This document shows, in pieces, positions 30,567 to 32,846 of a stretch of 64,000 nt of DNA. Position numbers and translations under genes: made by a program. Positions within the stretch are counted from its first letter, which is position 1, and each line of letters starts with the position of its first letter. The notes under the pieces were generated by a model. It was not told where the DNA came from. It ran no database searches and saw only the letters and a list, made by a program, of their open reading frames with translations. This DNA is from Trichomonas gallinae (taxonomy: Eukaryota), in assembly GCA_008369845.1 (NCBI GenBank), contig MRSU01006018.1, forward strand, positions 1-64,000, given 5' to 3'.

Positions 30567-30881
30567 TTAAAGTGTCATAAGACGATTTGCTATCGTGCTG
30601 AAATCGGAAATATCGACGTTTTGAGTAATTGCGGCTTCAATTTTGAGTTTTCTCTTGTCACAGTCACCAAATAAATTGGAAACTGCAAGGTGAAGAGCTT
30701 CTACTTCTGTGTCTAATTGTTGTTTAACTTTAACTTTATCAGGAGAATCATCTTCAGTTATAATGAGTTCTTGACTATTAATGCGTGTTAGCGCACTATA
30801 TGTTGTTTTGCGGAGGTTTTCGAATGCTCTCGTTAACTCAGACATCTGCTGCTCAAATTGCTTTTCTCCCTGTTGCTCCAT
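30567..30881 (-). CDS. Small helical/coiled-coil hypothetical protein
   Basis: 104-aa ATG ORF with an AAAAGTGAC promoter motif about 10 nt upstream. Confidence 0.7.
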   Translation of the reverse strand: MEQQGEKQFEQQMSELTRAFENLRKTTYSALTRINSQELIITEDDSPDKVKVKQQLDTEVEALHLAVSNLFGDCDKRKLKIEAAITQNVDISDFSTIANRLMTL

Positions 30882-30999
30882 ATATTTATGTCACTTTTAA
30901 TTACTTTTGCCAATAAAATAATTTACATGACAAATAACATTTTTTTTTTTGAGACACATCTACGGTTTGGCCTAACACTTTTTTAAAAACAGAAAAAGC

Positions 31000-31133
31000 G
31001 TATGTATTAATACTGTTCTTGATTGATTTGCGATGGGGATTAAGATGAGTCTTGCTGTCTATTATGATAACAACGCACGCTTGCTGAGCAAATCAACAAG
31101 AACAAAAAAATTTTAAATTAAACTAACACACAG
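31000..31133 (+). other. Spliceosomal intron (trichomonad type), 134 nt
   Basis: 5' GTATGT at 31000-31005 and a perfect fused branch point/3' splice site ACTAACACACAG at 31122-31133. Confidence 0.85.
31014..31104 (+). ncRNA. Intronic structured RNA, box C/D snoRNA-like
   Basis: 17-bp terminal stem TGTTCTTG-A-TTGATTTGC / GCAAATCAA-CAAGAACA. Box D CTGA (31084-87) abuts the stem, a degenerate box C ATGGGGA (31033-39) sits at k-turn spacing, and a C'-like ATGATAA lies at 31064-70. Confidence 0.55.
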
Positions 31134-31641
31134 AGTTTTCAAACTTATTGATTCTACTTAGAATAGCTTACTTTAAACATTGCTCCCAGTTCTCTTTAAA
31201 TAAAGACTAAATTTTCATTTACAATATATTTTATTTTACAGAATATAATAAACAGTATTTAAAACATCATATACAAGTTACCAGCAATTCATAATATAAA
31301 CAACATTCATAAACTCGTTTGATTTCGCATCTTGATTATTATGATGATTTTTAAACGCGATAGATCGATTTATTAGTATTGTGTATGTATATATATCGAT
31401 ATACAAGATATATTTTGTTCTTCTATGTCAAAATCAAAATCAATGAATTGATTTACAAAAATTCATCTTTTTCTGTCTCTTAGAAAAGCCTAAATGTGTA
31501 TAAAACAACTAAACCACTCAAAAGAGATAGTAAATGCAGAAAATTTATTATTTGATACTAAATTTCATGTCTTTTTACTTGTTTATAAGTTTCATCTTAT
31601 TTGATAGACACTAATATATTTATTCTATATTACAAAGTCCC

Positions 31642-32846
31642 TCAATAAGGGATTTTGTGAGTTTTGAGCGTTTGCAGTCCTCGACCGATGTGTTTCAATG
31701 CTTCTTTGACGTTGACTTCCCTTCCTCCATAATCGTGGTGAAATCCAGGAATTCCTTTATACATGAGACAAAAAATATCACAATTTGATACTGCAGCAGC
31801 AGCACTTTTGTCTCCACAATGACATGTTGCGATAACAATGCACGAGAATGAATGCATCACGTATGCTTTGAAACAATTCGATCCTGTTGGAGTGAACATG
31901 AATTTGATTGAAGCAAAAACAGGTGCTGCTTCTCTCAATGAGTATATATCTGTCTGGTTCTCCCAGTTATACTCACCATATACTATTTTCGTTTGATTAA
32001 AAATTTCAGGCAAATTTAAAATGTGTCGTGGACGTTTGTAACCTCTATTCATGAACACATAGCGTGTTGGCTTAATCTTACCAAGGTTAAATTTCTCATG
32101 CAAGAATATTTGTAATCTTTTCGTGTGAATTCCGAAAGCGTTGATGAAACTGACAGGATTCACTATGGATGAGATTATGTCACACGATACCCAGCACTGA
32201 CTTCCTATAGCAATAACTCTATTCTTGGGTATATTAAGTAATTCAATTATCAAATCCATAATTGGAGGAAATCCATTATATAGGAAATACGCATTTGTCC
32301 GTAATTCCTTTGGGAAGTAATGCAGGAAGAATAGAAGCGGCTGCGCGATGTCTTCGAGCGCGTGTCCGAAATTGTGTTCACACTCACCATACCCAATGCA
32401 AAGGATATGTGGGTAGTGTCCCACGACATTGTTGGGGTTGATTTGTCTGCGGTCTTTATATAAGTCGCCCCAAAAGTATTTTGGTCGCGGAAAATTAATG
32501 ATCCATAAAAATTCACGTAACAGTTGTATGCTTGTATGAAATGGTAGAAAGGATTCTTATAGATGATGTTTATCTCTCGTGTTTCACTTGGGGATCTATA
32601 CATATCGAAATAAATATAATTATTTAGCCCTGGATAAGATCCATTTATAGGCATATCGATAAATATATCGGGATGGCTGTAGTTTGCTGGTACTTCTGTG
32701 AAATTTGCTAAACGGCTTTCTGGTTTCCAATAAAAATCCTTGATAAGTTGAAATCGAACTTCCTGCTCATATACTAAAGCGAATGCTATCATTGCTGAAA
32801 ATATAGCCATCTGTCCACCATCAAAGAAGCAATTTTCACTAATCAT
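31642..32846 (-). pseudogene. Frameshifted glycosyltransferase family 61 (DUF563)-like gene
   Basis: Two overlapping ORFs (32250-32846 and 31642-32424) join into one roughly 400-aa protein with an N-terminal hydrophobic anchor and NFGHALED, YVFMNR..RPRHILN, F.PTGS motifs. A single frameshift lies between about 32425 and 32555. It may be a sequencing error. Confidence 0.7.

Follow-up and report, generated by a model that had tools for sequence, protein, structure and literature searches.

An orphan intron of Trichomonas as the probable source of a box C/D methylation-guide snoRNA

The locus and its intron signals

The window, by which we mean the whole 64-kb stretch of DNA analysed here, contains a short locus between two protein-coding neighbours: a divergent gene of 104 amino acids (starting at 30881, minus strand) and a convergent glycosyltransferase-61 ORF (31642, minus strand). 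The former, at 30567-30881, has no Pfam family and one near-identical homologue. The latter belongs to a pair of ORFs of 198 and 205 amino acids on the minus strand (31642-32846) that overlap by 10 nt, with the glycosyltransferase-61 domain in the second; the pair may be a single gene split by a frameshift, or else reflect an error of assembly. Among the assembled RNA contigs of three sequencing runs, one (run X1) lies over the 104-amino-acid gene and none over the locus, and these runs are uninformative on its expression. The features are collected in Table 1.

Table 1. Observed and predicted features of the locus, in window coordinates.
Feature	Position	Strand	Basis
M3-like promoter motif ACGGTTT, putative function	30962..30968	+	Rarity of RCGGTT
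Loose initiator match ACACT, predicted start near 30977	30975..30979	+	Fits HCAHW (PMC7370421, in part)
Predicted non-coding exon 1, ~23 nt, no ATG	30977..30999	+	Putative start
Type-A spliceosomal intron sequence, 134 nt	31000..31133	+	Motif match, published consensus, orthologues
5′ splice site GTATGTA	31000..31006	+	Same letters in both orthologues
Outer stem, 5′ arm	31014..31031	+	Fold; paired changes in orthologues (by eye)
Box C, ATGGGGA, degenerate	31033..31039	+	K-turn register; same in both orthologues
D′ guide, 10 nt	31044..31053	+	Complement of LSU rRNA L133 3376-3385, Rfam RF02543 model 927-936; same in both orthologues
Box D′, CTGT, degenerate	31055..31058	+	Same in both orthologues
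Box C′ region	31062..31070	+	Reads TTATGA where both orthologues have TGATGA (31062-31067); the ATGATAA register (31064-31070) is conserved too
Spacer before box D	31069..31083	+	Two bases differ in orthologues; no box-adjacent rRNA match
Box D, CTGA	31084..31087	+	Adjoins stem; conserved
Outer stem, 3′ arm	31088..31104	+	Fold
Fused branch site and 3′ splice site, branch A = 31126	31122..31133	+	Same in both orthologues
Predicted non-coding exon 2, ~75 nt	31134..31208	+	TAAA signals at 31174, 31197, 31201, 31208; putative end

The central feature is a 134-nt intron sequence that runs from GTATGT at 31000 to ACTAACACACAG at 31122-31133. It agrees with the definition of type-A introns, i.e. a GYAYGY 5′ site, a length of 41-178 nt and RCTAACACAYAG, a consensus taken from parts of PMC12316389 and PMC13548475. 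No other match to the type-A pattern occurs on either strand of the 64 kb, where a second-order Markov model predicts 0.0004 such motif pairs per window, and the published type-B pattern has no match in the window.

The junction is not crossed by any ORF, and neither the spliced nor the unspliced form has a reading frame of more than 36 codons. The frame opened by the ATG at 30927 closes after 8 codons. Once spliced, the transcript would have its first ATG at 31341 (11 codons), downstream of the four TAAA signals. Neither side of the intron carries an ORF before the convergent neighbour is reached, and a second intron motif that might serve an upstream exon is absent from the window. In having exons devoid of an ORF, the locus is as expected of a non-coding snoRNA host. 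An earlier note on this DNA had described the same two signals as the ends of the only canonical intron in 64 kb, placed in a transcript without an ATG. These descriptions hold, and the upstream coding exon with an ORF across the junction, which it had named as one of the observations that would overturn its reading, was not found in the window.

The note had also pointed to promoter motifs, with a more mixed outcome. ACGGTTT at 30962 resembles the M3 consensus, and the motif is rare: RCGGTT occurs 17 times in the window, with 0.008 occurrences expected per 60 nt, and none of 30 ORF starts has it within 60 nt. The second motif, CACTTT, is not an M5 element, which reads CCTTT. The initiator pattern that fits here is loose and the match a weak one, as 53% of random 30-nt windows agree with it. 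At the other end of the transcript, 31208 is the putative end of exon 2, placed by a cleavage consensus. UAAA is located 10-30 nt upstream of transcript ends according to part of PMC13548475.

Fold, boxes and predicted rRNA target

The intron is predicted to fold around an outer stem of 17 base pairs with one bulged A. The fold of the full 134 nt has an energy of -30.9 kcal/mol (z -3.46), and 0 of 200 shuffled sequences were as good. The stem leaves 43 nt between the splice sites, in agreement with the approximately 25-44 nt to which folding brings the splice sites of long T. vaginalis introns (PMC6679479, in part). Stems are frequent in ordinary long Trichomonas introns according to the same portion of that paper, therefore the stem alone is no proof.

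Box D adjoins the 3′ arm directly and lies 39 nt from the branch A. Box C is positioned 3′ of a 3-nt bulge, which is the k-turn register, and matches 5 of the 7 bases of RUGAUGA; its k-turn has a G.G pair at a position where A.G is standard and normally invariant. Internal D′ and C′ boxes are present in the degenerate forms CTGT and TTATGA, the latter having lost one G in the window, and the C′ box of the orthologues is canonical. The earlier note was right about the stem, the direct contact of CTGA with it and the k-turn spacing of box C. The C′-like ATGATAA that it named does keep a conserved register, but the canonical C′ box of the orthologues begins two bases to the left. Its guide, placed before box D, did not survive: this spacer has no 9-base perfect match to rRNA, its best duplex is interrupted and not adjacent to the box, and it varies between species. 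The interrupted SSU duplex formed by the box D slot is equal in energy to that of the other guide slot (-15.7 versus -15.6 kcal/mol).

The guide that does match is the one before D′. When the whole intron is compared with the rRNAs of two contigs, L133 and L127, the stretch 31044-31053 is the sole perfect 10-base complement, and it ends one base before D′. Such a match is found in 1.6% of shuffled guide slots, which makes the 10 bases by themselves modest evidence, and it did not arise in any of 200 shuffled versions of L133. At one guide position L133 and L127 have a C, with which the guide pairs, in place of the A of the Rfam eukaryote consensus. Its +5 base, 31050, forms a Watson-Crick pair with the A at RF02543 model position 930. 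In box C/D snoRNAs the methylated base is the fifth from box D or D′, and the guide is accordingly one that would predict 2′-O-methylation of the LSU adenosine at model position 930, presumably yeast 25S A917 by offset. The site falls within a short hairpin of the rRNA model. We found no paper naming A917 as a methylated site, and a full-text literature search for the guide and target motifs returned only unrelated papers.

These target rRNAs derive from two rDNA contigs, 88% identical in LSU, that come from organisms other than the host, and it is on this parabasalid-type rDNA that the guide has its 10 complementary bases before D′ and its Watson-Crick pair at +5. A small-subunit motif retrieved 13 genome loci, of which 8 were scanned and 3 contained eukaryotic rRNA (L122, L127 and L133), which we take to be parabasalid-type. 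Because the contigs were chosen by a small-subunit motif, the LSU match is independent of the rDNA search. All three are eukaryotic rDNA contigs inside bacterial MAGs, i.e. contamination. Scans of viral contigs for rDNA gave 3, 1 and 0 loci, with no rRNA among the four scanned.

A tRNA target was also considered, and was abandoned after the match to rRNA had come to light. The single tRNA of the window, a tRNA-Ala(AGC) at 2-75 on the minus strand and the only gathering-level Rfam match in the window, has no 8-base complement. The best Rfam match of the intron is snoZ7/snoR77 (RF00268), which resembles it in box layout and length; the intron scores 18.8 bits, short of the gathering score of 43, and has a different guide, and is not a member. 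All five sub-threshold Rfam matches of the intron are to C/D families.

Orthologues and a class of orphan introns

A list of motif-perfect "inactive introns" that lack RNA-seq validation is given in the S3 Table of PMC12316389. By eye, two of its rows are orthologues of the locus, T. vaginalis row 2 (chr_I 6200488-6200619) and T. stableri row 17, annotated as "No RNAseq evidence" and "Not assembled, Low coverage", respectively. All comparisons with this table were made by eye and concern intron sequences only. The core from box C to box D has 49 and 50 of 55 bases in common with the two orthologues, and both splice signals, ATGGGGA, the guide before CTGT, and CTGA are the same in both. The T. 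vaginalis stem retains 17 of 17 pairs and the same bulged A, with three double substitutions and a paired indel relative to the window, and the T. stableri stem has one outer pair broken. The A/T tail before the branch site cannot be aligned across species, and the intron interior is far more conserved. The boxes and the stem are therefore kept in two other Trichomonas species, and the window presumably belongs to a further member of this genus. Judging from these three introns, selection acts on the boxes, the guide, the pairing and the splice signals.

Other introns resemble this one, and together they form a class of about 15-18 families. T. vaginalis rows 1-18 of the S3 Table have the same exact splice signals, lengths of 100-135 nt and no remark about a nearby gene. 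An rRNA complement of 10-12 nt lies 0-1 nt before a D′-like box in 15 of these 18 rows and in 12 of the 15 families, as read by eye against stretches of L133 rather than by a formal screen, with a chance of about 0.5% per slot. Thirteen of the complements are perfect and two contain one G-U pair. Row 6 is circular, as its complement helped to choose the rDNA search motif. The remaining rows, 3, 7 and 16, have complements at other positions, and rows 6 and 17 likewise have a degenerate D′ box. In rows 8, 11 and 15 the +5 base corresponds to what we take to be conserved methylated sites, yeast Cm1639, Gm1126 and Gm1428. CTGA is found in 17 of the 18 T. vaginalis orphan type-A rows versus 1 of 22 long coding-gene introns (PMC6679479 Additional file 6, in part). 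T. stableri rows 4-20 comprise orthologues of 12 of the families and three more families, the guides of which also match L133; an annotated gene is overlapped by 7 of these 17 long rows. The long "inactive" introns of Trichomonas appear for the most part to share the design of this locus.

Some entries have other layouts. T. vaginalis row 3 and T. stableri rows 19-20 carry two 9-nt SSU complements (L133 828-836 and 1918-1926) that are not adjacent to a box. The first of these stretches is presumably where U14 pairs, and the RNA is a candidate U14-like processing snoRNA. T. vaginalis row 7 and T. stableri row 14 lack CTGA and have arms of 10 and 8 nt that match LSU stretches one base apart (L133 5236-5254), a candidate for an atypical two-armed RNA. 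Type-A UTR introns of Prp18 and Lsm3 with the length of snoRNA introns, 100-102 nt, are listed in the S2 Table of PMC12316389 (rows 6, 15 and 24 of the part used here). In a scan of metagenomes, 116 loci fitted the splice-motif pattern, with none resembling the intron among the matches listed; ten loci contain a repeated element that ends in the trichomonad 3′-splice-site 12-mer and seems to be a repeat family of no relation to these introns.

Non-coding host transcripts with snoRNAs in their introns are already known, gas5 and the SNHG genes being among them; what we propose is a link to the Trichomonas orphan introns. In fungal snoRNA clusters and the mammalian U22 host gene (both from part of PMC3596301), as at this locus, a guide RNA resides in an intron, there is no long ORF and release is by splicing, which is here a prediction. 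The exons of those hosts are poorly conserved. Unlike them, each gene of the kind predicted here would have a single intron with a single snoRNA, only about 100 nt of exon, and apparently one active guide (D′).

Since 2005 the orphan introns have been listed as intergenic or inactive, with their probable snoRNA content unrecognised. As far as the consulted parts go, PMC12316389 and PMC6260720 differ from our account in having no snoRNA reading and in treating these introns as remnants or setting them aside; the word "snoRNA" has no occurrence in the main texts of either. The former interprets unvalidated introns as remnants or stage-specific genes, and brings up snoRNAs only in general terms, in connection with introns of 5′ UTRs; the latter sets aside 22 of 41 intergenic fragments from Vanacova 2005. 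The available portion of PMC13548475 has no mention of snoRNAs and no match for this intron. A sentence from 2008 refers, as unpublished data, to T. vaginalis intronic snoRNAs without TMG caps (PMC2588526, in part), and may concern this very class. Chen 2011 considered intronic snoRNAs "highly unlikely" (PMC3228867, in part). Chen et al. 2009 (PMC2817412, in part) described C/D snoRNAs of T. vaginalis, the same organism group and RNA class as proposed for the locus. Our search found no literature linking orphan introns to snoRNAs; Vanacova 2005, Simoes-Barbosa 2008/2012 (RNA) and the Chen 2009 supplement may hold part of it.

Proposed release of the RNA and its significance

We interpret the feature as a predicted box C/D methylation-guide snoRNA, released from the intron of a short non-coding transcript, and give this reading a probability of roughly three in four. 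It is supported because the boxes and stem are conserved, the rRNA complement is adjacent to a box and an ORF is absent, and it agrees in outline with what was first proposed for this locus. The sequence 31000-31133 is likely to be spliced only to release a small RNA, as most "inactive" Trichomonas introns appear to be.

In the mechanism that we propose, RNA polymerase II would start near 30977 and produce a transcript of about 23 + 134 + 75 nt. The outer stem would bring the splice sites to within 43 nt of each other and at the same time join boxes C and D. The spliceosome would remove a 134-nt lariat, which would be debranched and trimmed to an RNA of 60-90 nt bound by Snu13, Nop56/58 and fibrillarin, and the D′ guide would then direct 2′-O-methylation of the A at LSU model position 930. 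The joined exons, of about 100 nt, would be waste and would be lost from poly(A) libraries. Such a discarded product would explain the missing RNA-seq support. Columns lose short RNA. In the relevant part of PMC12316389, T. vaginalis RNA was extracted on columns and T. stableri RNA with TRIzol.

It is conceivable, though we think it unlikely, that the snoRNA is real and is not released by complete splicing. The splice signals would then serve a one-step spliceosomal cut or act in processing, or they would be left-overs next to an RNA matured from an unspliced precursor, by de-intronisation as in Saccharomyces. Mammalian splicing-dependent snoRNP assembly needs box D to be farther from the branch A than the 39 nt seen here. 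Junction support is also missing for 14 of the 18 orphan introns listed for T. vaginalis and for 8 of the 17 long T. stableri rows, the 22 intergenic fragments are without EST support (PMC6260720, in part), and de-intronisation is a described process (PMC3596301, in part). However, the other 9 of the 17 T. stableri rows are labelled "Not assembled, Low coverage", a category separate from "No SJ reads", and a first exon of 23 nt and a product of 100 nt would be expected to escape these libraries. Furthermore, three species share the same 7-mer at the 5′ splice site and the same 12-mer down to its final AG, while the adjacent tail has diverged. Unused signals should decay.

A role as an rRNA folding chaperone, or as an orphan RNA, for the released molecule, with no methylation of the predicted adenosine, appears quite improbable. 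The degenerate C, C′ and D′ boxes, the position of the target in a short rRNA-model hairpin and the lack of reports of the site under the names searched would all fit such a role. Set against these are the canonical geometry, with a guide one base before D′ and a Watson-Crick pair at +5, the degenerate D′ boxes that rows 6 and 17 have as well, and the location of the +5 base on conserved methylated sites in rows 8, 11 and 15. The published reading of a protein-gene remnant or stage-specific intron, or else a 5′ UTR intron, with boxes arising by chance, is hardly credible given that both flanks lack an ORF as far as the convergent neighbour and that there is no second intron motif for an upstream exon, that the interior is far more conserved than the tail, and that rRNA complements occur in 15 of 18 rows.

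Returning to the intron-released guide snoRNA, we consider it probable on balance that Trichomonas keeps about 15-18 minimal genes, each composed of a promoter, one intron and one snoRNA. These would make up about a third of the long introns (18 of 57 in T. vaginalis), and would supply much of the rRNA ribose methylation as well as a U14-like RNA, tying the spliceosome to ribosome production. The genome has only about 63 coding-gene introns, and the proposal gives a testable account of why a spliceosome should be retained in spite of this small number. It would also extend intron-hosted snoRNA expression to the metamonads, and bears on whether this strategy is ancestral in eukaryotes.
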